Source of the DNA: Terriglobales bacterium
GTDB taxonomy: Bacteria; Acidobacteriota; Terriglobia; Terriglobales; Acidobacteriaceae
Direction of reading: 5' to 3'
Assembly: GCA_035623255.1 (NCBI GenBank)
Contig: DASPTU010000125.1
Coordinates: 166,818 to 198,817 of the forward strand
DNA length: 32,000 bases
The position numbers were made by a program, and so were the translations under genes. Positions 1,991 through 18,181 of this stretch are shown piece by piece. Numbering within the stretch: position 1 is the stretch's first letter; each line of letters starts with the position of its first letter. The notes below the pieces were generated by a model that was given only the letters and a program-made list of their open reading frames with translations, ran no database searches and was not told where the DNA came from.

Positions 1991-2112
1991 TGATCCTGAC
2001 GGCTTGGAATACTGGAAGCTGTATACGCGAACGGCGCTTCAGAAGAGTATTGTCGTCCGGCACTGCTGATTATGCAGCCCTGAATATCATCCTTCTGCAA
2101 CAGGAGGAAAAT

Positions 2113-2802
2113 GTGAAACGGTTTTCTGTCCCGGAATTCCTGGACAGCGATGCGGGTACAACTTGCGAAGTGCGGACTGCGTTAACAGACCTGCAGCGCA
2201 TCAACCGTTGGTTCGGCGGCACTGCGACGACTCTAGCCATGCTGGAACGGGTCCTCGATTGTACGAACAAGCACGATCTGTCTTTTCTGGAGGTGGCCTC
2301 GGGCACGGCAGAAGTCCCGGAGATAGCTGCAGGCACTGCATCCAGGCGCGGTATTGTCCTCCGCACCTTCCGTGTGGACCGCGCGGCCTCGCACCTGACG
2401 AATGGCAGCAGAAAAGCGCACGACGCAATTGTCGCAGACGCGCTGCATTTGCCGTTCGCTGACCGGAGCATTGACCTGGTCAGTTGCGGCTTGTTTGCCC
2501 ATCACCTCGACCCGCAGCAACTGATGCGATTTGGGAAGGAAGCATTGCGGGTTGCGCGTGTCGCGTTGCTGGTCAACGACTTGGTACGAAACCCCGCACA
2601 CTGGGCGGCGGCATGGATAGGACGACCGCTGTGGCGCAGCCGACTGACGCGCCACGATAGTGTTGTATCCGTCCGCAGTTCCTACACGCCTGGAGAACTT
2701 CGCTCGTTGCTGCAGCAGGCTGGTGCCGCGGAGGTCGAGATTAGTCGGCATTACTTCTTCCGCATGGGCGCAATTGTCTGGTCGACACCAGCAACGAGTT
2801 GA
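2113..2802 (+). CDS. Class I SAM-dependent methyltransferase
   Basis: Motif I-like LEVASGTAEV is followed by acidic and hydrophobic post-motifs (DLVSCGLFAHHL, LLVNDL). AGGAGG at 2102-2107 sits 5 nt upstream of GTG 2113. The longest ORF starts at ATG 1969, but that start has no SD. Confidence 0.75.
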   Translation: MKRFSVPEFLDSDAGTTCEVRTALTDLQRINRWFGGTATTLAMLERVLDCTNKHDLSFLEVASGTAEVPEIAAGTASRRGIVLRTFRVDRAASHLTNGSRKAHDAIVADALHLPFADRSIDLVSCGLFAHHLDPQQLMRFGKEALRVARVALLVNDLVRNPAHWAAAWIGRPLWRSRLTRHDSVVSVRSSYTPGELRSLLQQAGAAEVEISRHYFFRMGAIVWSTPATS

Positions 2803-2844
2803 CGTCACCCCAAAAAGTCGGCAGAATGTCTCGATTTTCGGAGA

Positions 2845-4254
2845 ATGAACGTGGAGATCACGTTCCCCCCGTGCATGGCCCAACCCTCGCCCATCCCTGC
2901 CGCTCACCCCAGCAAACCGCCCGGACCTCACGGTAATCTGTTGACCGGCAATTTCCGCGAGTTGCGCCAGGACGCACTAAGCTTTCTGACCCGATGCGCT
3001 CAGGAATATGGAGACATCGTGCGCTACCGCCTGGTCACATTTTACGGTTATCTGCTCAACCACCCGGACTACGTCGAGGAGGTGCTCGTTAATAACAGTA
3101 AAAACTTCATCAAGGGACGGGGGCTGCGCGCAAATCGCGCTCTGTTTGGCGAAGGGTTGTTGACCAGCGAGGGCGAAGTCTGGTTGGAGAAGCGCCGCAT
3201 CGCGCAACCCGCGTTTCATCCGCGGCGAATTGACGAGTATGGACAGCTGATATTGCCGCACGTCACGACTGCTCTGAGTGGTTGGCGCGACGGAACAGAA
3301 CGGGACATTGCGGCTGACATGATGAGCGTCACGTTGCAAATCGCTGCCAAGGCGTTTTTCGGCGCAGACCTCGCCGATCAAATTCCCGGTTTCCAACTGG
3401 CGTTCGAGGAGATTTCTCGCCAGAACGCCGGCCGTACTCGCCTGTTCCACCTCCCGGATATGATCCCCACGCCCGCCAACGTTCGATACAACCGCGCAGT
3501 CCACACCCTCGATTCCGTTGTCTACCGCATCATTCGGTGCCGCCGTGCCCAGAGGCGACATAATGACGATCTCCTCTCCATGCTGCTGCAGGCTCACGAC
3601 GAGGCGGGAGGACGGACCAGTGAGCGGCAGTTGCGAGATGACGCCATGACTTTCTTGCTCGCCGGACACGAGACCACTGCTTTAACCCTCTCCTGGGCCT
3701 GGTACTTGCTGGCACAAAATCCCCAAGCCGAACTGCAATTGGTGGAGGAACTCAAGCGCGTGTTGGCGGGACGCATGCCCGCTGTGCAGGACCTTGCATA
3801 CCTGCCCTACACTGAGGCGGTTATCAAGGAGACGATGCGCCTCTATCCGCCCGCCTGGCTTATGGTTCGCCAATCTGTAAACGACTGCCGCATAGGTTGT
3901 TATCGCATTCCGGCTGGATCTTCTGTCGTCTTTAGCCAGTGGGTTTTGCACCGTGATCCTCGGTACTTCGAAGCTCCGCAAGCATTTCGCCCGGAGCGCT
4001 GGCTGGACGGATTGGAAAAAAGATTGCCCCGCTTTGCTTACTTCCCATTTGGCGGCGGTCCCCGGTTATGCATCGGCGCGCCATTTGCCCTCATGGAAGC
4101 TTGCCTGTTGCTGGCCGCCATTGCATCGCAATTCCATTTCGATCTTCTCCCGTGGCCGGTCGTGCCCATGGCAGCTATCACGTTGAGACCGAAATTTGGC
4201 ATCAGAGTTCGTTTGTCCAGGCGGCAGCCAACAAATTCTTTGCGAACCAACTAG
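2845..4254 (+). CDS. Cytochrome P450
   Basis: 469 aa with I-helix AGHETT, K-helix ExxR (ETMRLYPP) and the heme-thiolate loop FPFGGGPRLCIG. The EGEVWLEKRRIAQPAF segment resembles fatty-acid-hydroxylase-type P450s (CYP4/CYP110-like, from memory). Confidence 0.9.
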   Translation: MNVEITFPPCMAQPSPIPAAHPSKPPGPHGNLLTGNFRELRQDALSFLTRCAQEYGDIVRYRLVTFYGYLLNHPDYVEEVLVNNSKNFIKGRGLRANRALFGEGLLTSEGEVWLEKRRIAQPAFHPRRIDEYGQLILPHVTTALSGWRDGTERDIAADMMSVTLQIAAKAFFGADLADQIPGFQLAFEEISRQNAGRTRLFHLPDMIPTPANVRYNRAVHTLDSVVYRIIRCRRAQRRHNDDLLSMLLQAHDEAGGRTSERQLRDDAMTFLLAGHETTALTLSWAWYLLAQNPQAELQLVEELKRVLAGRMPAVQDLAYLPYTEAVIKETMRLYPPAWLMVRQSVNDCRIGCYRIPAGSSVVFSQWVLHRDPRYFEAPQAFRPERWLDGLEKRLPRFAYFPFGGGPRLCIGAPFALMEACLLLAAIASQFHFDLLPWPVVPMAAITLRPKFGIRVRLSRRQPTNSLRTN

Positions 4255-4311
4255 GCTACGAGATTAGAATCTGTGCTTCGGCCGCAATAACGCGGTTGAG
4301 GGCTCAACGCA

Positions 4312-6009
4312 ATGGCTTGCGATATTTTGATTATGGGAGGTGGAGCTACCGGACAACTGGCGGCGGCTTACTTGCGCAAACGCTTTCCGGCTTTGAGCAT
4401 TACAGTGGTAGAGGGCCCTGGCAAGAACCGTCCCATAGTCGGCGAGTCCTTCGTTGAGCTGACCATTGATTTCCTGCTCGAACTCGGCCTCGGCGCCTAC
4501 CTGGTCGAAGAGCATTATCCCAAATACGGGCTCACCTATTACCACAAACTCAATATTGAAAATCCGGCGGACCGCACCTACTTCGTCGACGAGGCCCCCA
4601 CGGTACCGCCTCAGCTGTCGTTCCAGGTGAACCGCTTCACGTTTGACCGGGAAGTGCGCCGTCGCAACTGCCAGAATGGCGTGCAGATGGTGGCCGGCAC
4701 GGTCGTGTCGGTCGAACTCGCTCAGGCCGGCGAACTGCATTGCATCACGGTGGAAGACGCGGCTCGTCAGAAGTCGGCCTTACACGCCCGATGGTTGATC
4801 GATGCCACTGGACGCAATCGCGTCCTCGCTAAGTCGCTGCACCTTCAGCAAACCGTCAAAGAGCAGAAGAACGTTTTCTGGTTTCGTTTGGCCAACTTTG
4901 ATGCCGACATCATGGGACGCATCCATGCGTTGAAGAAAGAGAACCGCGCTTTCGTTCCCTACTTCGCAACCCATCACTTCTTTGGCAAGGGCAATTGGAT
5001 CTGGTGTATTCCCATGCGCTCTCCGGAGGCGCGCTCATTCATCAGCATCGGCATTACCTACCGTACCGACCAGTACCCGTATGGCGAACCCCGCAACCTG
5101 GAGCAGTTCTTGGAGTGCGTAGGGCAGGAGCACCAGGTCATCGTCGAGCTTGTGCGAAGTGGCACCGTCGTAGACTCGAATTTCTATCGCTCCTACATGT
5201 GGGAGTGCCGACAGCGATATTCACCCGATCGCTGGTACATTCTGGGCGATGCCGGCGATACGGTGGACCCGCTCTACAGCGTCGGTATGGCGCTGGCATC
5301 GATGCAGATCCGCCAAATCGGCGCCATCGTCGAACGTGACCTCGCCGGCCGGGACATCGCTGACTTTACTCGCGACCTCGACACTGTCATTGCCACTTTT
5401 CAGCGCAGTGTGACTCGTGATACCACCCGCCTCTACGAGTGCATGGGTGACCCGTATCAGTGCCACTTGCGGGTTCACCTGGTCGTCAGCAAGCTTTTTC
5501 ATTTCGCCGTCCCGCTGCTGATCAACGGCTATGCCTGGGACCCGCTGGGAGCTAAGCTCATCAACCGCTTCGCCAGCCTGCAAAGGCTTGAAGACGACTC
5601 CCGCCTGTTCCACGACTTGATTCGGAAAGTTGCCCAGGATCCTGAGAACTGCCGGCCGGAAAACTTCATCAAGGTGCAGTCCTCGGATTCCATGAATTAC
5701 AAATTTCTGGAGTGCCACCGCGAGCAGGACATTCCCGATTCCTTGGCGCAACTTCTCTTTTCGCTGGCTCGGTTGCGGCTTGGTCTACTGTTAAAACTCC
5801 GATCGCGGGCCTTGACGCAGTGGCCGCAGCATCGCGCGCTCGTCCTTGATGTTGTTCGCGGGCTGGTGCTAAAGGGGTTGTTCTCAGGCGTCAAATTTCG
5901 CGAAAGCCGCCTGGTACGCCGATTCGTTGCCGGAGCTGAGGCCCAGCCCGGCCCGGCACCGGCGGTTGCTGCTGCCTCCACCCAGCCGGTCAAAACTCCA
6001 TTGACTTGA
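4312..6009 (+). CDS. FAD-dependent enzyme with flavin-dependent halogenase signatures
   Basis: N-terminal GxGxxG (IMGGGATGQ) and a VGES motif. A candidate catalytic Lys lies in YPKYGLTYY. WLIDATGRN and GDAGDTVDPLYSVG are present, and WIWCIP (4996-5013) matches the halogenase-diagnostic WxWxIP. The ~150-aa C-terminal extension ends in a low-complexity A/P tail. Confidence 0.65.
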   Translation: MACDILIMGGGATGQLAAAYLRKRFPALSITVVEGPGKNRPIVGESFVELTIDFLLELGLGAYLVEEHYPKYGLTYYHKLNIENPADRTYFVDEAPTVPPQLSFQVNRFTFDREVRRRNCQNGVQMVAGTVVSVELAQAGELHCITVEDAARQKSALHARWLIDATGRNRVLAKSLHLQQTVKEQKNVFWFRLANFDADIMGRIHALKKENRAFVPYFATHHFFGKGNWIWCIPMRSPEARSFISIGITYRTDQYPYGEPRNLEQFLECVGQEHQVIVELVRSGTVVDSNFYRSYMWECRQRYSPDRWYILGDAGDTVDPLYSVGMALASMQIRQIGAIVERDLAGRDIADFTRDLDTVIATFQRSVTRDTTRLYECMGDPYQCHLRVHLVVSKLFHFAVPLLINGYAWDPLGAKLINRFASLQRLEDDSRLFHDLIRKVAQDPENCRPENFIKVQSSDSMNYKFLECHREQDIPDSLAQLLFSLARLRLGLLLKLRSRALTQWPQHRALVLDVVRGLVLKGLFSGVKFRESRLVRRFVAGAEAQPGPAPAVAAASTQPVKTPLT

Positions 6010-7324
6010 TCGTGCCCGTCGCCTGGGCAAAGTCAATATTGGCTTCGGTGCAGTTGAACTCTGCGGCGACACGGTCGTTGAGCGCGTTTTCTACTCGTGT
6101 CTCCGCGTCCAGCACGTCCAGACTTGTCGCCAAGCCTGCGTCATACCGGCGACGTGCGCGGCCCAGCTCGTCCTGCGCCAGGCCCACCGCGCGTTCCGCC
6201 ACCTGCAGCTGGCTCTGGGCAGAGGCCAGGCTGGCCAGCGCCTGGCGGACCTCCAGTTCTACCTGGTTCTTCAAATCTCGCTGCCGGATCTCCTCCTGTC
6301 GCAACAAGGCATTTGCCTGCCCGCGTTCGGCATCGATCCTGCCGCCATCAAACAACGGCACCCGTAATGATGCCCCGGCGGTGTGAGTGACGATGCCGCT
6401 GAGCAAACCGTAATCGGCAAAGCCGACCAGCGACGGGAGACGTTCCGCCCGCGCGGCACTTTGACCAAGGTGCGCGCCCTCCATTCGGCGCCGCTCGGCC
6501 AGGAACTCCGGTCGCGAACGTAATGCCACTTCCATCGCCTCCGCCGGCGTTGACAGCTGCGCTGGAACGCTGCCCAGTTTTCCTCCCAGATGCAAGCTGG
6601 TGTTCCAATCAATATTCAGCGCTTTGATGAGTTCCAGGTTTGCCCGGATGAGCACCGTTTGCGCTGCCAGCAGGCGCTGCTGGTTGCGCGACATGCTCAA
6701 CTCGGCGCGCGTCACATCCAGCGCAGTGGCCTCACCGGCGTTTTGCCGGCGACCGGCTTGGTCGCGCAGTTCTTGCGCGAGAGCTACGTTTGCCTGCGCA
6801 TTGGCGACGTCCGCCTCTGCGCGCAACGAGGCTGCGTAGAGCCGGGCCACCGTGGCCGCAACTTGCTCGCCCACACTCTGCGTGTCCGCCTCCGCTGCGT
6901 GTACGTCGGCGTGCGCAGCCTGGGAATGCCGAATAGTACTCACGTTCAGCAAATTCTGCGTGAAATGCAGGCGTGCGTCGAATGTGTTGAAAGGCCCCAC
7001 CTCGGTGGGAATCGTAAATCCCGATCCCGGAGGCGTGCTGAAACGGATTCCCAGCGCGTGAAGGTTGATGGTCTGGTCTTGCTCCGTCACACTCCCGTCA
7101 AAGTTGGGTAGTAGCCCGGAGCGAGCCTCCGCGTACCGGAAATGCGAGACATTCACCGATTCCTGCGCCAGCCGGACATCGGTATTGCCGTTCTTGGATA
7201 GCGCGATCTCGATGGCTTTCTGGAGGTTAAGCTCCAACGCCCGGTCCGGTCCACCAGCCGTTTGCCCTTGGCAAACGCTTAGGGATAGCAATGCCATCCC
7301 CCACATGATCCTGAAATTTGCCAT
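5990..7324 (-). CDS. TolC-family outer membrane efflux protein
   Basis: 444 aa with the signal peptide MANFRIMWGMALLSLSVCQG. It has OEP-type A/Q/R/L-rich coiled-coil repeats in two halves. It is divergent from the devBCA-like operon, and its 3' end overlaps the halogenase-like gene by 20 bp. Confidence 0.85.
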   Translation of the reverse strand: MANFRIMWGMALLSLSVCQGQTAGGPDRALELNLQKAIEIALSKNGNTDVRLAQESVNVSHFRYAEARSGLLPNFDGSVTEQDQTINLHALGIRFSTPPGSGFTIPTEVGPFNTFDARLHFTQNLLNVSTIRHSQAAHADVHAAEADTQSVGEQVAATVARLYAASLRAEADVANAQANVALAQELRDQAGRRQNAGEATALDVTRAELSMSRNQQRLLAAQTVLIRANLELIKALNIDWNTSLHLGGKLGSVPAQLSTPAEAMEVALRSRPEFLAERRRMEGAHLGQSAARAERLPSLVGFADYGLLSGIVTHTAGASLRVPLFDGGRIDAERGQANALLRQEEIRQRDLKNQVELEVRQALASLASAQSQLQVAERAVGLAQDELGRARRRYDAGLATSLDVLDAETRVENALNDRVAAEFNCTEANIDFAQATGTIKSMEF

Positions 7325-7508
7325 AGTCTGCCCTCAAGACATGGTGTAATATACTCCCCCGATTATCGGATGGGGATTTTGTTGTCAGTTTCTCCCCCGA
7401 CCCGCCGATACACCGTGACATGCCGTCGTGGCGTTTCCGATCAGCCGTGATTGTCGCGTGCTGAACGACGGCCGTCAAACGCTGACTAGAAATTCGCGAG
7501 GGCGAACC

Positions 7509-8948
7509 ATGATGCGCACACAAGTGGCAATCGTTCCCGTGCTGCTGGTTTGCTTTTCCATCGCTCGGGCGGTTGGCCCGTCGGAGCGCTCCAGCCAGGC
7601 ACAGCTCACTGACGTGCAGGTGCTTGATGACGCTCAAGCCCTGCAGTTGACGTTTAGTTCCGCACAGCACGGAGCACCTCAGCCCGCTACGCTCCGCCAT
7701 CCAGATCGCTTGGTCATCGATCTTCCGCAGACTGTGGTGCTGGAGCCGCGCCGTCTCCTGGTGTCCAGCCATGGCATGAAAGCGGTGCGAGTCGCGCAGC
7801 TCTCGTTGCGTCCGCAGGTGGCCCGCGTAGTCGTGGATTTGACCGCTCCTCTCACGTTTCAATTGCTGCCTCAGGGCGATCGCCTGCTGATCAAGCTCTC
7901 TCCCGAGCAGTCGCAGAAAATCGATGCGTCTGCTTCGGCAGGCCACCAGCCCAGTCCAGAGTCGTTCTCGCTGTCCCTGGTTCCGGCGGTCGCCGCGGCT
8001 TCAGTCAAGCCGACCCGCACCACGGCGACGCCGCCTACCAATGGGGTGGGTTGTTTGGGCCGCATTGAACCAGAAGATGGTGTCCTGCAAGTCAACGGCG
8101 GTTACCTGGAGGGGCGTCCCCAGCGCGTGCGCGAATTAAGAGTGAAAGAAAACGAATTTGTGCATGCTGGCCAGCTCTTGGCCGTCCTCGATGGCAAAGA
8201 TCAGCTCGAAACCGCGGTGCAGCTGGCCGAGGCGCGCGTCGAGCTGGCGCGTTCCCGCCTGGCCCAGGTGAACGCGGGTGCCAGTGCCTCCGAGATCGCT
8301 GCCCAGCAAGCTCAGGTCGAGGAAATCAAAGCCGACCTGCAAAATGCGCGCTCCGAGTACAAGCGATATCAGGAGCTTCGGCAGAACACGGATGTGTCGC
8401 CCGCAGAACTGGACGCGCGTAGCTTGGCGGTGAAAACCGCGGAACAGAAGCTGGCGCAAGCGCAGGAGCGTCTTAAGGCCATTTCCGAGGTCCGCCCCAC
8501 CAATGTAGCCGTGGCCGAATCTGAGCTCCGCGTCGCCCAGGCCGAGGCTGACCATGCCACAGCCAAGCTCAGGACCGCCCTCGTCTATTCTCCGGTGAAC
8601 GGTCGGGTATTGACGATTCACGCCTACCCAGGCGAAGAACTCGGTCCTGCGGGCCTGCTCGATCTTGGCAAGACCGACAACATGTACGTGCGCGCCGAGG
8701 TCTACGAAGACGATATTTCTCGCGTGCATACTGGCCAACAGGCTTATATCACCAGCGACCTGTTCCCAGGCCAGATCTCAGGTGTGGTGGACAGAGTCGG
8801 CAGCACCATTTCGAAGAACAACGTCCTCCCGCTTGATCCCGTCTCTTTCGCAGATGCTCGCGTATTCAACGTCCGTATCCACCTGGATCGCGCCAGCGAT
8901 GTGGCCAACTTCATCCATGCCAAGGTCAATGTGGTGATACGCCCATGA
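7509..8948 (+). CDS. DevB/HlyD-family periplasmic adaptor with an N-terminal AMIN domain
   Basis: From ATG 7509 the protein begins with a signal/anchor sequence, MMRTQVAIVPVLLVCFSIARA. The longest ORF starts at GTG 7428. The AMIN-like pattern at 7605-7907 includes RLVIDLP, VRVAQ, ARVVVDL and RLLIKL. A DevB-like core follows (GRIEPEDGVLQV...VKENEFVHAGQLLAVLD, then a long coiled coil). Confidence 0.85.
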   Translation: MMRTQVAIVPVLLVCFSIARAVGPSERSSQAQLTDVQVLDDAQALQLTFSSAQHGAPQPATLRHPDRLVIDLPQTVVLEPRRLLVSSHGMKAVRVAQLSLRPQVARVVVDLTAPLTFQLLPQGDRLLIKLSPEQSQKIDASASAGHQPSPESFSLSLVPAVAAASVKPTRTTATPPTNGVGCLGRIEPEDGVLQVNGGYLEGRPQRVRELRVKENEFVHAGQLLAVLDGKDQLETAVQLAEARVELARSRLAQVNAGASASEIAAQQAQVEEIKADLQNARSEYKRYQELRQNTDVSPAELDARSLAVKTAEQKLAQAQERLKAISEVRPTNVAVAESELRVAQAEADHATAKLRTALVYSPVNGRVLTIHAYPGEELGPAGLLDLGKTDNMYVRAEVYEDDISRVHTGQQAYITSDLFPGQISGVVDRVGSTISKNNVLPLDPVSFADARVFNVRIHLDRASDVANFIHAKVNVVIRP

Positions 8949-10099
8949 GTGCGCAGATCCCTTTGGCATGGCTGCAGCTTATCCGTATGAAAGGTCGGTT
9001 GATCGCAGCTGTGGCGGGCATCGCCTTCGCCGTCATCTTGGCTTTGGTACAGATGGCATTTCAGGACGCGCTCTACGTCAGTATTACGCAGCTGTATTCC
9101 CACTTCACCGCCGACCTGGTGCTTATCAGCCCGCGCTACCAGTGCATCATTGCTCCGGATGATTTTCCCGAGCGACGGCTTTATCAGTCGCTGGCAGTCG
9201 AAGGCGTGCAGTCGATTGCGGCCGTCTATATGGACATGGCGCAGTGGATTAACCCGATCAACCACTACGAGCGCCAGATCTTTGTGATCGGTTTTAAACC
9301 CGCGCCCGGAGTGCTGGACTTGCCATCAGTAAACCGGAACCTCGCGGAGATTGCGCAACCCGACAAAGTTTTATTTGACGAGGGCTCGCGCCCGGAATTC
9401 GGCCCCATCGGCAAGCTGTTTCGTCAGAACGGATCGGTCACATCCGAACTTTCCCATCGCCACGTGCAGGTCGTCGGCTTGTTCCAGGTGGGCGCCAGTT
9501 TTGCTAACGATGGCAACGTCATCACCAGCGACACAAATTTCCTGCGCATCGCTCCCTATCGGCAGCTCGGCATCGTGGACATTGGCCTCATCCGTGTTCA
9601 GCCGGGCACCGATATCGAAGCCGCTCGGAGTAAGCTGGCCGCCATGCTTCCGCGCGATGTCGTCGTGCTCACCAAGCAAGGCTTTCTCGATCGTGAAAAG
9701 AACTACTGGGCTTCGAGTATGCCCATCGGTTTCGTGCTGGGAGTATCGTTGGTCATGGGGTTGGTCGTCGGTGTCGTCATTGTTTACCAGATCCTTTACA
9801 GCGACGTGTCTGAGCACCTCTCCGAATTCGCCACCCTCAAGGCCATTGGCTACTCCGATCGTCGCCTGTTCTGGATCGTGGTGCAGGAGGCGCTCATTTT
9901 GGCGGTGCTGGGGTTCTTTCCGGGCCTGCTGATGGCATTGGGCGTCTACCAGATTGCTCGGTCTGCCACCGTGCTCCCGATTCAGATGACCACCGTCCGT
10001 CTTGTGGTCGTTTTTTTCCTGACGCTTGCGATGTGCGGCATTTCAGGATGTCTGGCAGTGCGTAAATTGCGCTCTGCCGATCCGGCCGAGATTTTCTAG
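8945..10099 (+). CDS. DevC-family ABC exporter permease (FtsX-type)
   Basis: 384 aa. The N-terminus IPLAWLQLIRMKGRLIAAVAGIAFAVIL is typical of DevC, and there is a C-terminal FtsX 3-TM bundle. ATGA start/stop overlap with the adaptor gene implies translational coupling. Confidence 0.85.
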   Translation: MSAQIPLAWLQLIRMKGRLIAAVAGIAFAVILALVQMAFQDALYVSITQLYSHFTADLVLISPRYQCIIAPDDFPERRLYQSLAVEGVQSIAAVYMDMAQWINPINHYERQIFVIGFKPAPGVLDLPSVNRNLAEIAQPDKVLFDEGSRPEFGPIGKLFRQNGSVTSELSHRHVQVVGLFQVGASFANDGNVITSDTNFLRIAPYRQLGIVDIGLIRVQPGTDIEAARSKLAAMLPRDVVVLTKQGFLDREKNYWASSMPIGFVLGVSLVMGLVVGVVIVYQILYSDVSEHLSEFATLKAIGYSDRRLFWIVVQEALILAVLGFFPGLLMALGVYQIARSATVLPIQMTTVRLVVVFFLTLAMCGISGCLAVRKLRSADPAEIF

Positions 10100-10108
10100 G
10101 CTCTGAGT

Positions 10109-11449
10109 ATGGAAACGGTAATCTCTATCCGCGAAGTCAACCACTATTTTGGCACGGGCGATTTGCGCCGCCAGATTCTGTTTGGCGTGTCCACCGACAT
10201 TTCACCGGGTGAGATTGTGATCCTGACAGGCCCTTCGGGATCAGGCAAAAGTACCCTACTCACTTTGGCCGGCGCTTTGCGGTCGGTTCAGGAAGGCAGC
10301 CTGCAGATTTTGGGCCGCCAACTTAAAGGCGCCGATAACCTTGAACTCGTGCGCGTGCGCGCCAATATCGGTTTCATTTTTCAAGCGCACAATCTCCTGG
10401 AAGCTCTTACCAGCCGCCAGAATGTGCAAATGTCACTGGCGCTGACTCCGGAATTGTCCGAGAGCGAAGTGCGTGCGCGTTGCGATGCGATGCTGGAGGC
10501 TGTTGGGCTAGGGCACCGCATCGACGCTTATCCTTCAGAACTATCGGGAGGTCAGCGACAGCGCGTCGCCGTGGCTCGCGCCCTCGTGCATCAGCCCAAA
10601 ATCATCCTTGCCGATGAACCCACCGCCGCTCTCGATCGCAAAACCGGCCGGGAAATCGTGGAGTTGCTGCACTCCCTGGCCAAGCATCAGGGCTGCGCCA
10701 TTCTGATGGTCACTCACGACAACCGTATTCTCGACATCGCTGACCGGGTGTTGACTCTCGAGGATGGTCGCATTACATCCTTTGTGGCCGGCTTCGCCGC
10801 CAACACTGGCCGTATGCTTTCTACCTTTGCTCAGTTGCAGCGCAAGGGAGAATTGCTGCGCCATGTCAGCGGCATGTCCAGCCGCCAGTTCCTCGACGTA
10901 CTCGATCACATGACCTCAGAATTCGACCAGTTTCTGCAGATCGTTGATCTCGGCAACCAGCAAGCCGTGCAGGCCCTTTTCGACCACATGCTGGAAGCAG
11001 TATTGATGAAAATCCGGCAATTGCTGGATGCCGATCGCGGCACGCTCTTCCTCGTGGACCACGACCGCGGGAAACTGTGGTCCAAAGTGGCCGAGACTGA
11101 TGGCGCGGAGCCTCTGAGAATCGAGATACCCAGTAACGTTGGAATCGCAGGCTACGTCGCCCGCACTGGACAGACGCTCAATATCACCGATCCCTATCAA
11201 CATCCCGACTTCAACCCGGAGGTAGACCGCCGGACTGCCTATCGCACAAAGAGCATACTGTGCATGCCGATTTTCGACCGCCAGAGGAATGTGTTTGCGG
11301 TCGCAGAGTTGCTTAACAAGCGCACCGGCCAGCCATTTGCCGCCGCCGACGAGCAGGCTTTTCGCGAGTTCGCCCCGCCTCTGGGCCTGATCCTGGAAAG
11401 CTGCCTGCGCATGACCCAGGAGCGCACCGACTTAGCCTTGGCCGCCTGA
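10109..11449 (+). CDS. DevA-family ABC ATPase fused to a C-terminal GAF domain
   Basis: Residues 1-222 carry Walker A GPSGSGKST, LSGGQRQR, Walker B IILADEPT, and DevA-like motifs NHYFG and LRSVQEGSL. Residues ~286-435 (10964-11413) are GAF-like: DRGTLFLVD...LWSKV...IPSNVGIAGYVARTGQTLNITDPYQHPDFNPEVD...ILCMPIFD...VFAVAELLNK. Confidence 0.85.
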   Translation: METVISIREVNHYFGTGDLRRQILFGVSTDISPGEIVILTGPSGSGKSTLLTLAGALRSVQEGSLQILGRQLKGADNLELVRVRANIGFIFQAHNLLEALTSRQNVQMSLALTPELSESEVRARCDAMLEAVGLGHRIDAYPSELSGGQRQRVAVARALVHQPKIILADEPTAALDRKTGREIVELLHSLAKHQGCAILMVTHDNRILDIADRVLTLEDGRITSFVAGFAANTGRMLSTFAQLQRKGELLRHVSGMSSRQFLDVLDHMTSEFDQFLQIVDLGNQQAVQALFDHMLEAVLMKIRQLLDADRGTLFLVDHDRGKLWSKVAETDGAEPLRIEIPSNVGIAGYVARTGQTLNITDPYQHPDFNPEVDRRTAYRTKSILCMPIFDRQRNVFAVAELLNKRTGQPFAAADEQAFREFAPPLGLILESCLRMTQERTDLALAA

Positions 11450-11457
11450 ACCCGTTG

Positions 11458-12708
11458 TCAGGCCACGTTACGCAGCACCAACGCTGAATTCTTGCTCCCG
11501 AACGCGATGCAATTACACACCGCCCATTCCGGCTGCATGCGGCGGCCGCACTCCGGAACGTAGTCCAGGTCGCACTCCGGATCGGGGCTCTCCAAATTGA
11601 GGGTGGGAGGCAGCACGCCGTCTCGCATCGCCAAAAGCGTGCACGCTACGCCCGCGGCGCCGCAAGCGCCTTGAGGGTGTCCGATGTGACTTTTAACTGA
11701 CGACCCCGCCAGCCGGTAAGCGTGGCCGTTGAATGCGAGTTTGATGGCCCGCGTTTCAATCCGGTCGTTCAGTTCCGTCGAAGTGCCGTGGTAGTGCACG
11801 TATTCGACGGCTGGCGGACTGATTCCCGCATCTTCGATTGCCATCTGGATAGTACGCGCGGGCTCCTCACCACACTCCTGCAAGCGGACCCGATGGTAGG
11901 CCTCGCAGGTCGAAGCGTAGCCTGCCACTTCGCCGTAAATTCGCGCACCCCGCGCCTTGGCCCGTTCCATATCTTCGAGCACGAAAAACCACGCCCCCTC
12001 GCCCAGCACAAAGCCGTCCCGATCGCGGGAAAACGGGCGTGATCCTCGTTCCGGTTGATCGTTCCATCGGGTCGTGAGGATTCGCATCAGGAGAAAACCC
12101 CGAATGATGAGCGGGGCTATGGGAGCATCCACCCCGCCTACCACCATGTAGTCGAGGTTACTCGAACGCATATGTTGGCAGGCATAGCCGATGGCATCGG
12201 TGGAGGAGGTGCAACCCGTCGAGATCACGTGGCTAAGCCCCCGAAATCCGAAATACATCGAGAACTCGCTCGCTAACGTTCCGATGGTGGAGGTGGGAAT
12301 CACATACACACTGCATTGCTTGATTTTGCCCTCGTAGTACAGCCGGTACTGCTCCTCGGTAAAATCCTGGCTGCCTCCGCCTGAACCAATCATCACGCCC
12401 ACGCGCCGCAGCTCGTCGATGCTCATGGACTGGTAGTCGATCCCGGCGTCTTCCAGGGCCTCCTTGATCGCCGCCCGCCCTAGCGGCACCGCCCGTGAAA
12501 CGTGTTGGCGGTTCAGCGGGTCCACATATTGCTCTTCGGGGAAATCCAACACCTCTCCCGCAATCTGCACCTTGAGGTGGTCGGGATTAAAGCGGGAAAT
12601 GCGGTGCACACCGCTGACGCCGCGCCGGGTTGCGCTCCAAAACGCTTCCCGACCTATGCCGTTGGGGCTGACAGCTCCGATTCCAGTTACTACGACCCGC
12701 CTTCTCAT
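11458..12708 (-). CDS. Beta-ketoacyl-ACP synthase (KAS I/II-type condensing enzyme)
   Basis: 416 aa with an intact Cys-His-His triad: STGCTSS, YHGTSTELND and KSHIGHPQG. The TGCTSS context is more like type II PKS KS-alpha than housekeeping FabF (from memory). Confidence 0.9.
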   Translation of the reverse strand: MRRRVVVTGIGAVSPNGIGREAFWSATRRGVSGVHRISRFNPDHLKVQIAGEVLDFPEEQYVDPLNRQHVSRAVPLGRAAIKEALEDAGIDYQSMSIDELRRVGVMIGSGGGSQDFTEEQYRLYYEGKIKQCSVYVIPTSTIGTLASEFSMYFGFRGLSHVISTGCTSSTDAIGYACQHMRSSNLDYMVVGGVDAPIAPLIIRGFLLMRILTTRWNDQPERGSRPFSRDRDGFVLGEGAWFFVLEDMERAKARGARIYGEVAGYASTCEAYHRVRLQECGEEPARTIQMAIEDAGISPPAVEYVHYHGTSTELNDRIETRAIKLAFNGHAYRLAGSSVKSHIGHPQGACGAAGVACTLLAMRDGVLPPTLNLESPDPECDLDYVPECGRRMQPEWAVCNCIAFGSKNSALVLRNVA

Positions 12709-13050
12709 AGAATTCGCACACTATGTAAGCCGCTGTGCTTGATATGCGTTGCCTCCGTCAAATGAAGTAAGTCGTGCGCCGGCAACACGTAGAATCAGGT
12801 GTAGGACCCCAAAGCGCGCAACATTATACTGAACGGGTCAAGAATTGCCAAGCAGTCCCCCGGCAACTACCCGCGAGCACCCAGTCCCATCCCCATCATC
12901 CGTGCCTGCCCCCGGAGGCCACCGGCGGCGTCACGCTGATCTGCCAAAACTGCTGGTGTCGATGCGGCCAATGGGATAAGCTCTGCTTGCGCCCCGCACG
13001 GAGCACTGCAAGCCCGGTGCGGCAGCGAACATCCGAGGGCGGATTACACC

Positions 13051-13308
13051 ATGGACTCTGAAGTGGCGACCAAGGTTCTGGCGATTGTGGCCTCTGTCAA
13101 GCGTGTGGACCCGGCTACCATTTCCCCCGATGCCGCGTTCGAGGAGCTGGGAATTGATTCCCTCGACCGGCTCAACATCCTGTTCGAACTGGAGAACACC
13201 TTCAACATCGATGTACCCGACGACGAGGCGCGGGCGGTGGTCACAGTAAAAGATATGATAGAGCGCCTCGAATCATATCTACAGCGGCGAACCGCACAGG
13301 GAGCCTAG
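13051..13308 (+). CDS. Acyl carrier protein
   Basis: 85 aa with the phosphopantetheine attachment motif LGIDSLDRL. It lies immediately upstream of a KS gene. Confidence 0.9.
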   Translation: MDSEVATKVLAIVASVKRVDPATISPDAAFEELGIDSLDRLNILFELENTFNIDVPDDEARAVVTVKDMIERLESYLQRRTAQGA

Positions 13309-13317
13309 CCGGGACGA

Positions 13318-14541
13318 ATGTCTCGCGTCGCTATTACCGGCCTCGGTGTCGTCTGTGCGCTGGGCAAGAACGTCAGCGAATTTCGCGAGCGCTTGTTTGC
13401 CGGCCGCTCCGCCATCCTTCCAATTACCGGCGTGGATACTTCCTCCTTGCGTTTTCGCCAGGGCGCCGAGGTACAGGATTTCAATCCCTCTGAATATTTC
13501 GACAACACGCAGCGTGAATTACTCGACCGTTTCGCGCAATTCAGTGTTCTGGCCGCCCGTCAGGCTATGGCCGATGCCGGCATCACCATCACTCCCGACC
13601 TTGCACCCCGAACCGCGGTGATCGTAGGCGCCTCGATGGGCGGAAAATCTACGGAAGACGGTGGGTATCAGGAACTGTATCTCCACCGCCGCACACGTCT
13701 GCACCCCCTTATCATTCCCCGTAGCATGGCGAACGCTGGCGCGAGCAACATCTGCATGGAGTTCGGAATCACCGGCCCGGCAATGGCCATCAGCACCGCT
13801 TGTTCGTCCGCCAACCACGCCATGGGGCTGGCCTTCGCGATGGTACGCTCCGGGCAGGTCGATGTGGCGATCACAGGCGGCAGCGAAGCTCCCTTCAGCT
13901 ACGGCATGCTGAAAGCCTGGGAGGCCATGCGCGTCGTGTCTCCTGATACTTGCCGCCCTTTCTCCAGCGACCGTTCCGGCCTTATTCTCGGCGAGGGTGG
14001 GGCCATTTTGGTGTTGGAACCTCTGGAGCGCGCCCGCGAGCGCGGCGCCAATATCTACGGTGAGATCATCGGTTTCGGCATGTCCTCCGACGCTCAGCAC
14101 ATTACTCGACCTTGCCTTGCTGGTCCAGCCCAGGCCATGAAAAATGCGATGGCCGATGCTGCCATCGAGCCCGCTGCCGTGGGATACATTAATGCCCATG
14201 GCACGGGAACCGAGACCAACGATCGGGTCGAAACCCAGGCCATTCGCGCCGTTTTTGCCCGCCATGCGGACCGAGTGCTCGTCAGCTCTACCAAGTCCAT
14301 GCACGGCCACGCGCTGGGAGCGGCCGGCGCAATTGAAGGTGTTGCCACCGTCCTCGCCTTGCGAGAGCGAATGATTCCCCCGACTGCGAACTTCACCTCG
14401 CCCGACCCGGAATGTAACCTTAACCTGGTGGTCAACAAGGGCCAACCCGCCGAGGTAGAGTGCGCCCTATCTAACTCCTTTGCCTTCGGCGGCTTGAATG
14501 CGGTTTTGGCCTTCCGCGCTCCCGCTGCCTTAGGGCTCTGA
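13318..14541 (+). CDS. Beta-ketoacyl-ACP synthase II-like condensing enzyme
   Basis: 407 aa with an intact triad: ISTACSSANHA, NAHGTGTETND and KSMHGHALGAAG. There is a 9-nt gap after the ACP stop. Confidence 0.9.
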   Translation: MSRVAITGLGVVCALGKNVSEFRERLFAGRSAILPITGVDTSSLRFRQGAEVQDFNPSEYFDNTQRELLDRFAQFSVLAARQAMADAGITITPDLAPRTAVIVGASMGGKSTEDGGYQELYLHRRTRLHPLIIPRSMANAGASNICMEFGITGPAMAISTACSSANHAMGLAFAMVRSGQVDVAITGGSEAPFSYGMLKAWEAMRVVSPDTCRPFSSDRSGLILGEGGAILVLEPLERARERGANIYGEIIGFGMSSDAQHITRPCLAGPAQAMKNAMADAAIEPAAVGYINAHGTGTETNDRVETQAIRAVFARHADRVLVSSTKSMHGHALGAAGAIEGVATVLALRERMIPPTANFTSPDPECNLNLVVNKGQPAEVECALSNSFAFGGLNAVLAFRAPAALGL

Positions 14542-14748
14542 CTATTTCCGTGGAGAGGAGTCGGAGTTGTAGTTCGATTGTTCTTTTGTATGTATACTCC
14601 CGGGGCGGGGAAACTTGGCAACGTGCCACCCGTATTTGGGGATACCGCTATGCCAACGCGCATGATGGATAAATCACCCCATCCCGGATTGTGTGCACGC
14701 GTCCCGGTTCTTTCAGCTTTGTAATTGCCAGACCACATCGAGGCCTAT

Positions 14749-16401
14749 ATGCACGTGTCGGAAGTGGGGCTCCGACAACTCGCATCGTCCGGTTGCCCTG
14801 GCCAGGAAGAAGACTTTCCTCCGCTCGGCCGCAACATCAAGGTGCTGATGGTCTGGCCGCGTGTTCCCAAATCATTTTGGGCAACGCCCGACATTCTTCC
14901 CGTAAGCGCCGTGACGGCCCCCTTGGGGCTCATCACCGTGGCCGCTTTATGCCCGCCGTATTGGACCGTCCGGCTCATCGACGAATCGGTCGAAGACGTA
15001 ACCGATGCTGACCTCCGTGATTGCGACTTGGTCATGGTCAGCGGCATGTACGTCCAGAGGAGCGGCATCGAGAGGATCCTCGGACGAGCTCGCGCCCTCG
15101 GGAAACGCACCATGGTAGGTGGCCCGTTCACCAGCAGCGACCCCAACACTGTGCTCCCCCTGGCGGATCATGTCGTGGTGGGTGAACCTGACGCGGAGTT
15201 CCGCCGCATCGCAACCGCGCTCGAAGAGGGCACCGCGGCCCGCCTTTATGTCATCGAGGACAAACCCGATGTAACCTGCACACCTGTGCCCCGATTCGAC
15301 CTGCTGAACATGAATGCTTACGCCAACATGCCGATACAGTTTTCCCGGGGCTGCCCGTTCGAATGCGAGTTCTGCGACATTATTTCGATATATGGACGAA
15401 GGCCTCGCACCAAAACTCCCGCGCAGCTTCTCCGTGAACTCGATCGCTTGTACGAGTTGGGATGGCGAAGGCCCGTCTTCCTGGTCGACGACAATTTCAT
15501 TGGCAATCACAAACTGGCACTTAACCTGACCCGTCAGATGGAGGGATGGTCGCGAGCGCACAACTATCCCTTCGCATTCCTGACCGAGGCTTCCGCTGAC
15601 CTGGCACAGCGACCCTTACTGCTGCAATCCATGGTCGAGGCCAACTTCTTTGCGGTATTCCTTGGCCTTGAAACCCCTTCCAGCGACGCACTCAAGGAAA
15701 CCAGAAAATTTCAGAACTTGCGCGCTGATCCCTTAGCGACGGTCCGTTTTCTTCAGGAAAATGGCCTCTGGATCCTGGGAGGTTTCATCATCGGTTTCGA
15801 CTCCGACACCGCCGGCATTTTTGAGCAGCAACGCGAGTTCATTGAGCGCGCGGCCATTCCCTGGGCCATGCTGGGATTTCTGCAGGCGCTGCCTCAGACG
15901 GGCCTGTACGAGCGCCTCCGCAAGGAGGGTCGGCTCCTCAAAGGTGAGCCGATCGGCAATAACTATGCGCCGCCCAACTTCCGTACTCTTCTGCCCCGCA
16001 CGACCCTGGTCAAAGGCGTCGGGGATACGCTGCGGTCTATCTACTCCCCTGCTGAGTTCTATCGCCGCTGCCTTCGTTCCCTGGAGTACTGGAAAACACG
16101 CGAGCCCCAGCAACCACCCCGGCCCAGATTAGGAGAAGCGATGCTTCTGGTAGTTCGCTGCCTTTGGCACCAGGGCGTGAAATCCAATTACCGCAGAGAA
16201 TGGTGGAAGTTCCTGTTCGCCATTCTGCGCCGCTGGCTTTTTGTGCCCATGAAAATGTGGTGGGGATGGGTATTGTTAATTTCGGCCGATCACTTTTGTC
16301 AGTACGCCGCCCAAGTAGTGGCAGAGCTCAATCGCGAAGCACAGACCCAAAAGAGCGAGCCTTTGCCGACGAGGTCGGAATCCGCAGTTTGCGCTCGGTA
16401 G
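14749..16401 (+). CDS. B12-binding-domain radical SAM enzyme (class B, long C-terminal extension as in the DUF4070 type)
   Basis: The N-terminal cobalamin-binding-like region reads IKVLMVWPRVPKSFW...DLVMVSGM. The radical SAM cluster motif CPFECEFC (CxxxCxxC) is at 15352-15375. Start ATG 14749 is preferred over TTG 14725. Confidence 0.85.
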   Translation: MHVSEVGLRQLASSGCPGQEEDFPPLGRNIKVLMVWPRVPKSFWATPDILPVSAVTAPLGLITVAALCPPYWTVRLIDESVEDVTDADLRDCDLVMVSGMYVQRSGIERILGRARALGKRTMVGGPFTSSDPNTVLPLADHVVVGEPDAEFRRIATALEEGTAARLYVIEDKPDVTCTPVPRFDLLNMNAYANMPIQFSRGCPFECEFCDIISIYGRRPRTKTPAQLLRELDRLYELGWRRPVFLVDDNFIGNHKLALNLTRQMEGWSRAHNYPFAFLTEASADLAQRPLLLQSMVEANFFAVFLGLETPSSDALKETRKFQNLRADPLATVRFLQENGLWILGGFIIGFDSDTAGIFEQQREFIERAAIPWAMLGFLQALPQTGLYERLRKEGRLLKGEPIGNNYAPPNFRTLLPRTTLVKGVGDTLRSIYSPAEFYRRCLRSLEYWKTREPQQPPRPRLGEAMLLVVRCLWHQGVKSNYRREWWKFLFAILRRWLFVPMKMWWGWVLLISADHFCQYAAQVVAELNREAQTQKSEPLPTRSESAVCAR

Positions 16402-16412
16402 AAATCCCTTCG

Positions 16413-17816
16413 TCAGTTCTCTGCGTGCCCCAGGGCTTGAAGGGGGTGGCCTGAGTCGCGTAGTGGCTGCGCGTGCAGCGTCATCATGATTTTTCGGCGC
16501 GGCCGCAAACTGATCCGGGGCTCTGTACCGATCGGCGGACCGGGAACGACATCCAGGCGCCATCGTTGTGCAATCATCGCCAGCACCAGCTCCGCTTCCA
16601 TGCTGGCAAAGCGTTTGCCCAAACAAAGTCGTGGCCCTCCTCCGAAGGGAAAATAAGAGAACGGATGACGTCCTTGCGAGCGGTCGGGCGAAAATCGTTC
16701 TGGGTCGAAGCCTTCCGGGTTTTCCCATGAAGCGGGCCGGCGGTGTGCCGAGTAGGGACTGATCACAAGTACCGACTTCGCCGGTATGTGGTAACCATCG
16801 ATGTTGTCGTCCGCGATTGCCGTCCGAGCAATGGCCCAGGCGGAAGGATAAAGCCGCAGCGTCTCCTGGACGACCATGCGCGTATAAACCATTCGAGGAA
16901 GATCGTGAAACGTCGGCGTGCGCTCTCCCAGCAGGTCGCGCACTTCGTGGTACAGCTTTGTCGCGGCCACCGGGTTTCGGGACAGCAAATACCATGCCCA
17001 GGCGATCGCGTTGGCGGTCGAATCGTATCCCGAATCCACGAGCGTGATCATCGCATCCCGAATGTGCCGGTCATCCAGGCCGGAACCATTGTCTCTGTCG
17101 CCCACCAGCAGGGACAATACGTCCGTCTGCTGCTGGGGGCAGCGCCGCCGCCGCTCGATCAACCCGTAGGCGAAACTGTCGATGGTACGCAGCGCCTTGC
17201 GCAGTCTCAGATTGGCCGGCGTCGGCAAACGGTTCAACAACGGCCGCAACGGATTTAAGCCGGATGCCGGCTTAATCCGCTGTTCCGCCGTCTCCAGGGC
17301 GGGGCACAAACTTGCGCCATGCACCGCCAGTTGCGTGCTGAACAGGGTCCTCAAGAGGATATCCAGCGTGAGATTGCGCATTTGCTCGCGGATGTCGATA
17401 GCCCGGCCGGACTCGCCTGTCTCATCCCATGCGCGCAGCAGATTGAGGGTCGCCTCTACGATGATCCGCGCAAATTCCGGATCGTGATCGCTATAAAACG
17501 CAGGTTGCGTTTGCCGGCGCTGGCGATGCCACTCTTCTCCCTCGGCCGTAACCAGCCCATCACCATGCATTCTTCTCAACTCGTCGTAGAGTGAACCCTT
17601 GCTGTAATTCATGTAATTGTCTTGCAGAATGTGTTTGATGTGCTGAGGGTCGTTCAGCAGGAACACCGGCCGCAGACGCCGGTGGCCGACGCGAACTACA
17701 TCGCCATACTCGCCGAAGAGTTGTAACAACAGGTTGGGCGCATCCTGCAGAAGACTAGGCAGCAGGCGGATAAATTCCAACGTCGAAGGTCCAGGAGCAA
17801 CTCTTGCGATCTTCAT
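16413..17816 (-). CDS. Cytochrome P450, paralogue of the 2845-4254 gene
   Basis: Heme loop FPFGGGPRLCLG and ExxR ETLRLYPS are present. The I-helix is the variant DSGYDSTA, and EGEEWHRQRRQTQPAF is also present. The longest ORF starts at GTG 17906. ATG 17816 (MKIARVAPGP...) gives a typical P450 length. Confidence 0.88.
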   Translation of the reverse strand: MKIARVAPGPSTLEFIRLLPSLLQDAPNLLLQLFGEYGDVVRVGHRRLRPVFLLNDPQHIKHILQDNYMNYSKGSLYDELRRMHGDGLVTAEGEEWHRQRRQTQPAFYSDHDPEFARIIVEATLNLLRAWDETGESGRAIDIREQMRNLTLDILLRTLFSTQLAVHGASLCPALETAEQRIKPASGLNPLRPLLNRLPTPANLRLRKALRTIDSFAYGLIERRRRCPQQQTDVLSLLVGDRDNGSGLDDRHIRDAMITLVDSGYDSTANAIAWAWYLLSRNPVAATKLYHEVRDLLGERTPTFHDLPRMVYTRMVVQETLRLYPSAWAIARTAIADDNIDGYHIPAKSVLVISPYSAHRRPASWENPEGFDPERFSPDRSQGRHPFSYFPFGGGPRLCLGKRFASMEAELVLAMIAQRWRLDVVPGPPIGTEPRISLRPRRKIMMTLHAQPLRDSGHPLQALGHAEN

Positions 17817-18181
17817 GCGGCTGCACACGGTATCGGGCGCCGCCCGATAAGCTGAGGTCATCGCCAATGGGCACCTCCCGTCTGTTGCTCCGGGGGCCGG
17901 AAGCACTGAAGCGAAGTACGTCAGCCCGCCCGGCTCTCCCGATGCCAGCGAAGCACGGTCTTAAATCCGCGACAAGACCGGCACTCGAGAGAAACAGAGC
18001 GTATCCGCATGCCCCGTCCCAGACTCGTCTGACGCGCATCAGCATACGCCCAGCCATTCTGAAGTCAAGTCCGGCGCGGCTTTCTTCACGCCCACTATTG
18101 AGAAAGCCAATCCTTCAGCCGCACGATTATCGCCTGAATCGCCTTCTTCCAGCGGCGCAACTCAACGTTCCACTTTGCACC

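Follow-up and report, generated by a model that had tools for sequence, protein, structure and literature searches.

DevA-GAF: a DevA-family exporter ATPase fused to a GAF domain of the predicted cyclic-nucleotide-binding type in a Terriglobales bacterium

Introduction

The window analysed here, a stretch of 32,000 nucleotides from a Terriglobales bacterium of the Acidobacteriota (contig DASPTU010000125.1 of assembly GCA_035623255.1, positions 166,818 to 198,817 of the forward strand), contains at its positions 10109..11449 (+) a gene, devA, whose product joins the nucleotide-binding domain (NBD) of a DevA-family ATP-binding cassette (ABC) ATPase to a C-terminal GAF domain; the protein is called DevA-GAF in what follows. 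The fusion is real and not rare, being widespread over several phyla. The best reading of this architecture is ligand gating of export: DevA-GAF would be the ATPase of a DevBCA-TolC exporter onto which a cyclic-nucleotide sensor has been grafted, a proposal whose probability we estimate at about 0.6 and in which we infer the gating, the identity of the ligand, the allostery and the cargo.

The DevA-GAF Protein

The 446 amino acids of DevA-GAF are encoded in a single reading frame that opens with ATG and is interrupted by no stop. The original prediction, made from the nucleotide sequence alone, had described a single uninterrupted frame of this length, a complete DevA-like NBD in residues 1-222 with its motifs intact, and a GAF domain in the same frame; all three were borne out. 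Pfam places ABC_tran at residues 26-173 (E 1.4e-32), and residues 4-222 match positions 1-219 of the 220 in TIGR02982, the NCBIfam model of the DevA family, at 349 bits (cutoff 295.8). Walker A, the signature, Walker B with the catalytic glutamate, and the H-loop are all present (Table 1), Q92 being the Q-loop residue; in an alignment of 51 homologues the motif positions are invariant or nearly so, with the exception of S48, where the family consensus has Thr, either residue being usual in Walker A. In the AlphaFold2 (AF2) model of the full-length protein, the NBD region has a predicted local distance difference test (pLDDT) score of about 90 and matches the NBDs of type VII ABC proteins (MacB, YbbA, LolD, FtsE, HrtA) with a template-modelling (TM) score of about 0.9 and a root-mean-square deviation of about 2 Å; the predicted TM score (pTM) of this monomer is 0.54, and its placement of the GAF domain relative to the NBD is unreliable. 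DevA-GAF departs from the DevA family in architecture, not in NBD homology: it is not a stand-alone NBD of ~220-250 residues, since a C-terminal module of 224 residues brings it to 446.

An architecture of this kind could be an artefact, devA having been linked to a separate GAF gene by a frameshift, an overlooked stop or chimeric assembly, and in favour of this may be cited the derivation of the window from a metagenome-assembled genome (MAG) and the single in-frame stop of a related locus (L009; related loci are designated by L and a number), though that stop lies within the NBD and not at the junction. Such an explanation is exceedingly improbable, however: exactly the same 446-residue protein is present on five contigs from several sources (NCBI, where it is labelled as a Terriglobales MAG protein, JGI, ENA and Logan); the NBD runs on into the GAF in the same way in more than 200 clusters, which come from independent assemblies and from cultured strains; and the junction of NBD and GAF is itself conserved as protein sequence among the 51 homologues, the GC content running unbroken over it. 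A frameshift or assembly join at the junction, for which a check by read mapping had been recommended, is excluded by this recurrence, conservation and continuous composition, and the question could be settled without mapping.

The Sensor Module

The Pfam GAF model PF01590 matches residues 293-423 at E 3.8e-19 (70 bits against a cutoff of 22.4), and GAF_2 and GAF_3 also exceed their cutoffs. When residues 225-446 are compared by phmmer with the sequences of the PDB, the best match is the tandem GAF of CyaB2, an adenylate cyclase of Anabaena (1YKD, E 7.4e-54, both GAF-A and GAF-B), followed by PDE2A GAF-B (1e-28), PDE5A GAF-A, the HD-GYP GAF 4MCW and PDE10A GAF-B; haem-binding DevS GAFs match the module only at E about 1e-3. 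The AF2 model of the module alone (pLDDT 84, pTM 0.80) finds, as its best 39 Foldseek matches, exclusively GAFs from cyclic-nucleotide-monophosphate (cNMP)-signalling or HD-GYP proteins, several of them cNMP-bound; PDE10A, PDE5A, CyaB2, PDE2A, PDE6, Lcd1-cAMP and 4MCW are among these 39, and bilin and PtsP GAFs rank below them.

The NKFDE motif, which typifies most characterised cNMP-binding GAFs (PMC4411481), is present (Table 1). The pocket was compared over 18 modules, 16 of them from DevA-GAF proteins of five phyla and two from cyclases; the N, F and D of the motif are invariant in 18/18 of them, and K and E each deviate in one. The residues that contact cAMP in CyaB2 GAF-B (R291, T293, I308, T309, D356 and N359; PMC4411481) fall, in the phmmer alignment, on R310, T312, V327, A328, D373 and T376 of DevA-GAF. 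These contact positions are largely kept over the 18 modules, D373, T380, N403, F410 and D414 being invariant. Nine of the 11 residues that we take to be the ligand contacts of PDE2A GAF-B, and whose spacing was checked on the alignment, are identical or conservatively replaced in DevA-GAF. To judge from sequence and model, the GAF domain belongs to the cyclic-nucleotide-binding PDE/CyaB clade rather than to the GAFs of tetrapyrrole or other type. Its nearest relatives sense cAMP, and cGMP is not common in bacteria, so that cAMP may be named, as a prior guess, as the likelier ligand; a pathway product or precursor is a less probable signal than either cyclic nucleotide.

The region between the two domains, residues 223-290, had been described as a linker of about 60 residues; it does lie between NBD and GAF, but it is no mere spacer. 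Among the 51 homologues it is invariant at H252, F261 and E271, and many other positions exceed 90%; the AF2 models of both the full-length protein and the module predict three to four helices for it. In a representative search, the stretch from about residue 232 to 434 was also found as the N-terminus of GAF-GAF-PAS-adenylate-cyclases and of HD-GYP proteins; the N-terminus of one such cyclase, P0124, is 46% identical to the module over 205 residues, helices included, and the module of the Nostoc DevA-GAF, at 40% identity, falls below this value. The extension thus appears, by homology, to correspond to the conserved N-terminal helices that precede GAF-A in CyaB-type cyclases, and to form part of the sensor module; since helices and GAF alike are shared with P0124, the fusion would have joined the DevA NBD to a ready-made cassette of the CyaB type, consisting of N-terminal helices and GAF-A. 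A search with residues 223-446 gave 13,597 matches at E ≤ 1e-3 and 510 at E ≤ 1e-30, numbers that describe the size of the GAF subfamily; the search is headed by multi-GAF signalling proteins, whose summed scores outrank those of single-GAF proteins, and is no count of NBD-GAF fusions. In CyaB2, binding of cAMP shifts the dynamics of the N-terminal α2 and the C-terminal α5 helices (PMC4411481), and a path from the pocket to the NBD through the N-terminal helices is thus plausible; DevA-GAF itself ends about 10 residues past helix α5 of the GAF domain.

Distribution of the Fusion and a Parallel in Planctomycetes

At least 120 relatives of the window protein carry PF00005 together with PF01590 (120/120 of those listed, at 62-100% identity), with lengths of about 440-475 residues, one longer variant apart; a second search, seeded with the Nostoc protein, added at least 120 further clusters, again with the fusion in 120/120 of those listed. 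The more than 200 protein clusters that combine NBD and GAF belong to the Acidobacteriota, Elusimicrobia, Verrucomicrobiota, Margulisiibacteriota (a MAG) and Cyanobacteria, and, in a scan of one genome per GTDB species, full-length matches to both domains were obtained from Bryobacteraceae, other Acidobacteriota, Terriglobia, Elusimicrobia, Verrucomicrobiales, an Acaryochloridaceae cyanobacterium and Nostoc. Cultured cyanobacteria with the fusion include Cyanothece sp. PCC 7425, Leptolyngbyaceae CCMR0082, Adonisia turfae and Nostoc spp. In databases these proteins go by unspecific labels, for example "ATP-binding cassette domain-containing protein"; that of Cyanothece sp. PCC 7425 is a "Putative phytochrome sensor protein" in UniRef. 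No PDB chain joining this NBD to a GAF domain was found in structure searches with the full-length and module models, and full-text literature searches aimed at the fusion, which most subscription journals lie outside of, found no description of an ABC NBD-GAF protein or of the planctomycete fusion treated below, the seeming matches proving coincidental, in agreement with the original prediction, which knew of no characterised example; the family appears to be unstudied.

Some variants of the fusion may be mentioned. Tandem double-GAF forms of DevA, about 650-670 residues long, occur in Cyanobacteria bacterium SBLK (L010:10001-11959) and in Leptolyngbyaceae CCMR0082 (L084:10001-11956), both GAFs having the NKFDE motif or a close variant; the latter organism also has a single-GAF paralogue, P0327. 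In Elusimicrobia REEB4 (L009:10001-11311) an otherwise full-length DevA-GAF of 62% identity has its single in-frame stop just before LSGGQ, which could reflect a pseudogene, a sequencing error or recoding.

A second kind of fusion emerged from the scan of GTDB species genomes, in which the DevA open reading frame was read out in all 80 loci and was found to be without GAF in 69 of them. The majority of these (59/69) are plain, complete proteins of 222-250 residues, cyanobacterial and other, with the stand-alone NBD that is canonical for DevA; the other ten, all from Planctomycetota, are 354-364 residues long (loci L022, L028, L030, L056, L057, L062, L064, L075, L076 and L077, of which L076 is from the complete genome of Pirellulaceae SH501, CP197422). 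A Pfam scan of five of the ten revealed a C-terminal cNMP_binding domain of the Crp type (PF00027, E 6e-19 to 6e-24), and the C-terminal sequences of the other five are very similar; the proteins are referred to here as DevA-CNBD, from cyclic-nucleotide-binding domain. They have in common with DevA-GAF the same DevA-family NBD (57-62% identity), the type of operon (in L028, L064 and L077) and the point at which the sensor is attached, but they differ in the unrelated fold of the sensor (a β-barrel CNBD of about 130 residues), in having no long helical extension and in forming a separate clade of the NBD tree.

On this evidence, two structurally unrelated domains, each a predicted cyclic-nucleotide sensor, have been fixed at the same point of DevA in different phyla; the presence of a CNBD at this position points independently to cyclic-nucleotide control, and such a double fusion would be difficult to explain unless selection favours cyclic-nucleotide control of the pump. 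As to the number of events, GAF-bearing NBDs occupy three places in a neighbour-joining tree of the NBDs (drawn without support values) and CNBD-bearing ones a single clade; the homology of the linker over all GAF forms would be equally compatible with a single origin of these, and no conclusion on the number of fusion events is drawn.

The Exporter Encoded in the Window

The ATPase gene is the last of a devB-devC-devA operon whose genes lie on one strand, devB and devC overlapping by 4 nt and the devC stop being separated from the devA start by a 9-nt gap (Table 1). DevB and DevC, like DevA, score above the curated cutoffs of their families, and a TolC-like gene is adjacent; therefore the window is predicted to encode all parts of a DevBCA-TolC pump, a tripartite system like MacB (type VII ABC). 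The TolC-like protein, which matches the TolC family model TIGR01844 at E 3e-38, under its cutoff, is the probable exit duct of the pump; a divergent TolC-like gene is also present in L001, L002, L082 and L083, and in L004 and L009 it lies upstream on the same strand.

Table 1: Features of the devBCA-GAF locus, in window coordinates.
Feature	Position	Strand	Basis
TolC-like outer-membrane factor (OEP), divergent from devB	5990..7324	-	Pfam OEP E 5.8e-50
DevB-family membrane-fusion/periplasmic adaptor	7428..8948	+	TIGR02971 239 bits vs cutoff 129; Pfam HlyD_3, HlyD_D23, AMIN
AMIN domain, extra N-terminal part of DevB	7614-7895 (about)	+	Pfam E 1.7e-10
DevC permease, MacB-type (FtsX + MacB_PCD periplasmic core)	8945..10099	+	TIGR01185 472 bits vs cutoff 290; Pfam
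DevA nucleotide-binding domain, residues 1-222	10109..10774	+	Pfam, NCBIfam, motifs, AF2
Walker A, G41-S48	10229-10252	+	
Signature LSGGQ, residues 145-149	10541-10555	+	
Walker B/catalytic Glu, I165-E170 (D169-E170)	10601-10618	+	
H-loop, H203	10715-10717	+	
Helical extension joining NBD to GAF, residues 223-290	10775..10978	+	Conservation, helix prediction, homology
GAF domain, predicted cyclic-nucleotide-binding (PDE/CyaB) type, residues 291-435	10979..11413	+	Pfam, phmmer, Foldseek, pocket
NKFDE motif, N403-K404-RTGQP-F410-AAA-D414-E415	11315-11353	+	Definition N-K-Xn-F-X3-D-E
FabF-like ketosynthase, convergent with devA, 8 nt from devA stop	11458..12708	-	Pfam ketoacyl-synt; NF005589 414 bits vs cutoff 387
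Acyl carrier protein (ACP)	13051-13308	+	
Second FabF-like ketosynthase	13318-14541	+	
B12-binding radical SAM/DUF4070 enzyme	14725-16401	+	

The true start of DevB is likely the ATG at 7509, which gives the signal peptide MMRTQVAIVPVLLVCFS. The DevBs of related loci, including the 67%-identical one of Bryobacteraceae, align by tblastn only from about residue 195 on. AMIN domains usually direct proteins to peptidoglycan or septal sites, and the extra domain of the window DevB could localise the pump.

The order devB-devC-devA/GAF is kept in most of the related loci examined, across phyla, often beside genes for ketosynthases (KS), polyketide synthases (PKS) or ACPs. Many related operons contain two DevC permeases (L001:12641-13792; L002:11685-12833; L082:11468-12652; L008:7655-9956; L028, L064 and L077), the second devC lying in tandem upstream or just downstream of devA; this suggests heterodimeric permeases, and the window has one devC. 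Three of the ten planctomycete loci, L028, L064 and L077, have devB-devC-devC-devA operons. A gene for an ABC1/UbiB-type kinase is found a few kb upstream of devBCA-GAF in two unrelated lineages, in an acidobacterial locus (L083:3694-5622) and in Leptolyngbyaceae (L084:4588-6699). An Rfam scan of the whole window found no riboswitch or other RNA control element, and promoter and terminator scans over 7200-11700 gave sites no more frequently than in shuffled sequence.

The Genomic Neighbourhood and the Possible Cargo

A biosynthetic-looking cluster surrounds the operon, spanning window positions 176-6009 and 11458-17906. Besides the KS, ACP and radical SAM genes of Table 1, it includes genes for an MsbA-like ABC exporter, a methyltransferase, two P450s, a flavin halogenase/monooxygenase-like enzyme and a flavoprotein resembling the geranylgeranyl-reductase family, the last under the family cutoff. 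Comparable surroundings are found elsewhere: a Bryobacteraceae locus, L001, has a 75%-identical KS in the same position as that of 11458..12708, and the KS, methyltransferase and flavoprotein of the window cluster recur in it; in an acidobacterium, L082, a 65%-identical radical SAM enzyme together with UbiA, methyltransferase, flavoprotein and KS-KS genes flanks the devBCA-GAF operon; another acidobacterial devBCA-GAF locus has acyltransferase, ketoreductase, two KS and ACP genes; and the DevBCA-GAF operons of Cyanothece and Leptolyngbyaceae adjoin type I PKS genes. Canonical DevBCA exports heterocyst glycolipids and requires the TolC homologue HgdD, its paralogues having other roles, drug efflux among them (PMC8277102), and pumps like DevBCA are found within lipid and alkylresorcinol clusters of cyanobacteria (PMC6836626). 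The neighbouring KS, ACP, radical SAM and P450 genes, and the analogy with glycolipid export by DevBCA, make a lipid or polyketide synthesised by these neighbours the probable cargo, which is likely to differ between lineages.

Farther from the operon, positions 24442-29496 encode an ADOP-family duplicated MacB-type permease (931 bits), followed directly by an 849-residue Ser/Thr protein kinase; the pair represents a second MacB-like system in the window, apparently without an ATPase gene of its own nearby. The window also contains genes for a Na+/H+ exchanger (18182-19462, -), a bactofilin (21679-22326, -) and a BlaR1-type M56 peptidase (31000-32000, +, cut by the end of the window), and three open reading frames (20821-21456, 22382-23275 and 29816-30919) without a Pfam match.

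Proposed Mechanism and Alternative Explanations

In the mechanism that we propose for gated export, two DevA subunits would sit under the DevC dimer, as in MacB-type transporters, and their GAF modules would dimerise beneath the NBDs, in the manner of the C-terminal regulatory domains of MetN, ModC and MalK. Binding of cAMP (or cGMP) in the conserved pocket would close the GAF domain and shift the N-terminal helical levers, altering the ease with which the NBDs close on ATP in the ATP sandwich; the ATPase activity, and the mechanotransmission to DevC, DevB and TolC, would change with it, and export would track the level of the second messenger directly, without transcription. As to the sign of the control, activation, as in CyaB and PDE2/5, may be slightly favoured by analogy, although inhibition, as in OpuCA or MetN, would be entirely possible.

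Several observations weigh against cyclic-nucleotide gating, and some of them lend weight to other explanations. The first concerns polarity: in all characterised cNMP-GAF proteins known to us the effector is C-terminal to the GAF domain, and here the NBD, the sole other domain, is N-terminal, so that the signal would have to travel through the N-terminal helices, in the direction opposite to that of the characterised proteins. In the monomer AF2 model these helices have a pLDDT of only 47-69, and a monomer model says nothing on the dimer. The NKFDE motif and the conserved pocket, moreover, are typical of cNMP-binding GAFs and may suggest binding, of which they are no proof. In PDE2 and PDE5 an Asp tells cGMP from cAMP; DevA-GAF has E329 at that position, and members of the family differ there. 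A choice between the two nucleotides by this residue was therefore rejected, and the ligand is not assigned as cAMP or cGMP from the sequence. Finally, no cyclase gene was found beside the operon, either in the window or among the inspected genes of five related loci.

The last two points also speak for the possibility that the GAF domain gates export in response to some other small molecule: a different nucleotide, an ion (Na+, for example, reportedly acts on the GAFs of CyaB1/2), or the lipid or polyketide that is exported, or a precursor of it. The location of the operon within a biosynthetic cluster adds to this, product sensing being physiologically sensible, as does the breadth of the GAF superfamily, which binds many ligands (PMC4411481). 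Against such a ligand stand the placement of the domain, in sequence and fold, within the cNMP clade and not among bilin, haem, formate or 2-oxoglutarate GAFs, and the conservation of the residues that contact the cyclic phosphate, the ribose and the base; the adjoining clusters, furthermore, vary with the lineage while the pocket stays constant, and the Crp-type cNMP-binding domain of the planctomycete proteins argues for a shared cyclic-nucleotide signal. We regard a different ligand as unlikely, the strongest of the alternatives as it may be.

Somewhat less likely still is a ligand-free role, in which the GAF domain would act constitutively, as a clamp that stabilises the DevA dimer or as a docking platform that draws in a partner protein. 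Dimerisation through flanking helices is common among GAF domains, the extension of DevA-GAF is highly conserved, and some GAFs with the NKFDE motif are, to our knowledge, not recognised as cNMP binders, all of which would fit a clamp. It would leave unexplained, however, why R310, T312, D373, T376 and T380, which have no role in dimerisation, are kept over five phyla, and a need for dimerisation could hardly account for the parallel acquisition of a CNBD, a dedicated ligand-binding fold; plain DevAs of 222-250 residues, besides, work without any clamp (DevBCA genetics reviewed in PMC8277102).

The cyclic-nucleotide reading can also be given a wider form, for which we consider the odds to be even: DevA-GAF and DevA-CNBD would together constitute an unrecognised class of cyclic-nucleotide-gated tripartite ABC exporters, which arose at least twice through unrelated sensors attached at the same point of DevA, in which cAMP or cGMP switches the export of envelope lipids or natural products post-translationally and, in the GAF version, the signal runs backwards.

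Comparison with Known Systems

Among exporters, the system most resembles DevBCA-HgdD, which exports heterocyst glycolipids in Anabaena sp. PCC 7120, and its DevBCA-like paralogues: DevA, DevB and DevC each score above the family cutoff, the order devB-devC-devA is the same, a putative partner of the TolC type is encoded beside the operon, and the biosynthetic neighbours are of the fatty-acid/polyketide type. It differs in the sensor module of 224 residues added to a DevA that is canonically a stand-alone NBD, in the extra AMIN domain of its DevB, and in its host, an acidobacterium without heterocysts. With MacAB-TolC and the other type VII ABC systems (LolCDE, FtsEX, YbbAP, HrtBA) it shares the fold of the NBD, a permease with FtsX and MacB periplasmic core, and the predicted tripartite arrangement with adaptor and duct, whereas no solved member of this type was found with a sensor domain on its NBD.

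On the sensor side, the closest relatives in sequence and fold are the tandem GAFs of the cyanobacterial adenylate cyclases CyaB1/CyaB2 and of PDE2, PDE5, PDE6, PDE10 and PDE11, which have in common with DevA-GAF the NKFDE motif, the pocket and the N-terminal helical extension. The window protein has, in contrast, a single GAF (some cyanobacterial relatives have it in tandem), and its effector is an ABC ATPase N-terminal to the GAF, by which the polarity of signalling would be reversed.

Regulatory domains borne by ABC ATPases are known from importers. MetN has a C-terminal regulatory domain and, in the structure search, aligns topologically with the full-length DevA-GAF model. In OpuCA the CBS domains bind c-di-AMP and inhibit the ATPase (PMC13508791). 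OpuCA (CBS, c-di-AMP), MetN (C2 domain, methionine), ModC and MalK thus offer the likeness of a ligand domain at the C-terminus of the NBD that controls the ATPase; they are importers, however, with CBS or ACT-like/OB-type domains and with a ligand that is usually the substrate (trans-inhibition), while DevA-GAF belongs to a predicted tripartite exporter, its sensor is a GAF domain and its signal is presumed to be cAMP or cGMP. There is therefore precedent for a sensor carried by an ABC ATPase, and DevA-GAF is built from familiar parts; for tripartite pumps of the MacB/DevBCA type, an ATPase-borne sensor was found in none of the solved structures searched and in no paper retrieved.

Significance

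The post-translational control of bacterial ABC exporters is poorly understood. The gating hypothesis can be tested, the family including cultured cyanobacteria and well-developed binding and reporter assays being available for CyaB2 and PDE2/5/10, and the parallel CNBD fusion provides a natural comparison for the GAF version; a ligand-switchable exporter module could, in addition, serve the engineering of controlled product export. Orphan class III cyclases are abundant in soil Acidobacteria and in cyanobacteria, and, if the proposal is true, DevA-GAF would be a concrete effector for them; through a pump gated by cAMP or cGMP, second messengers would then act directly on how envelope lipids or secondary metabolites are delivered.

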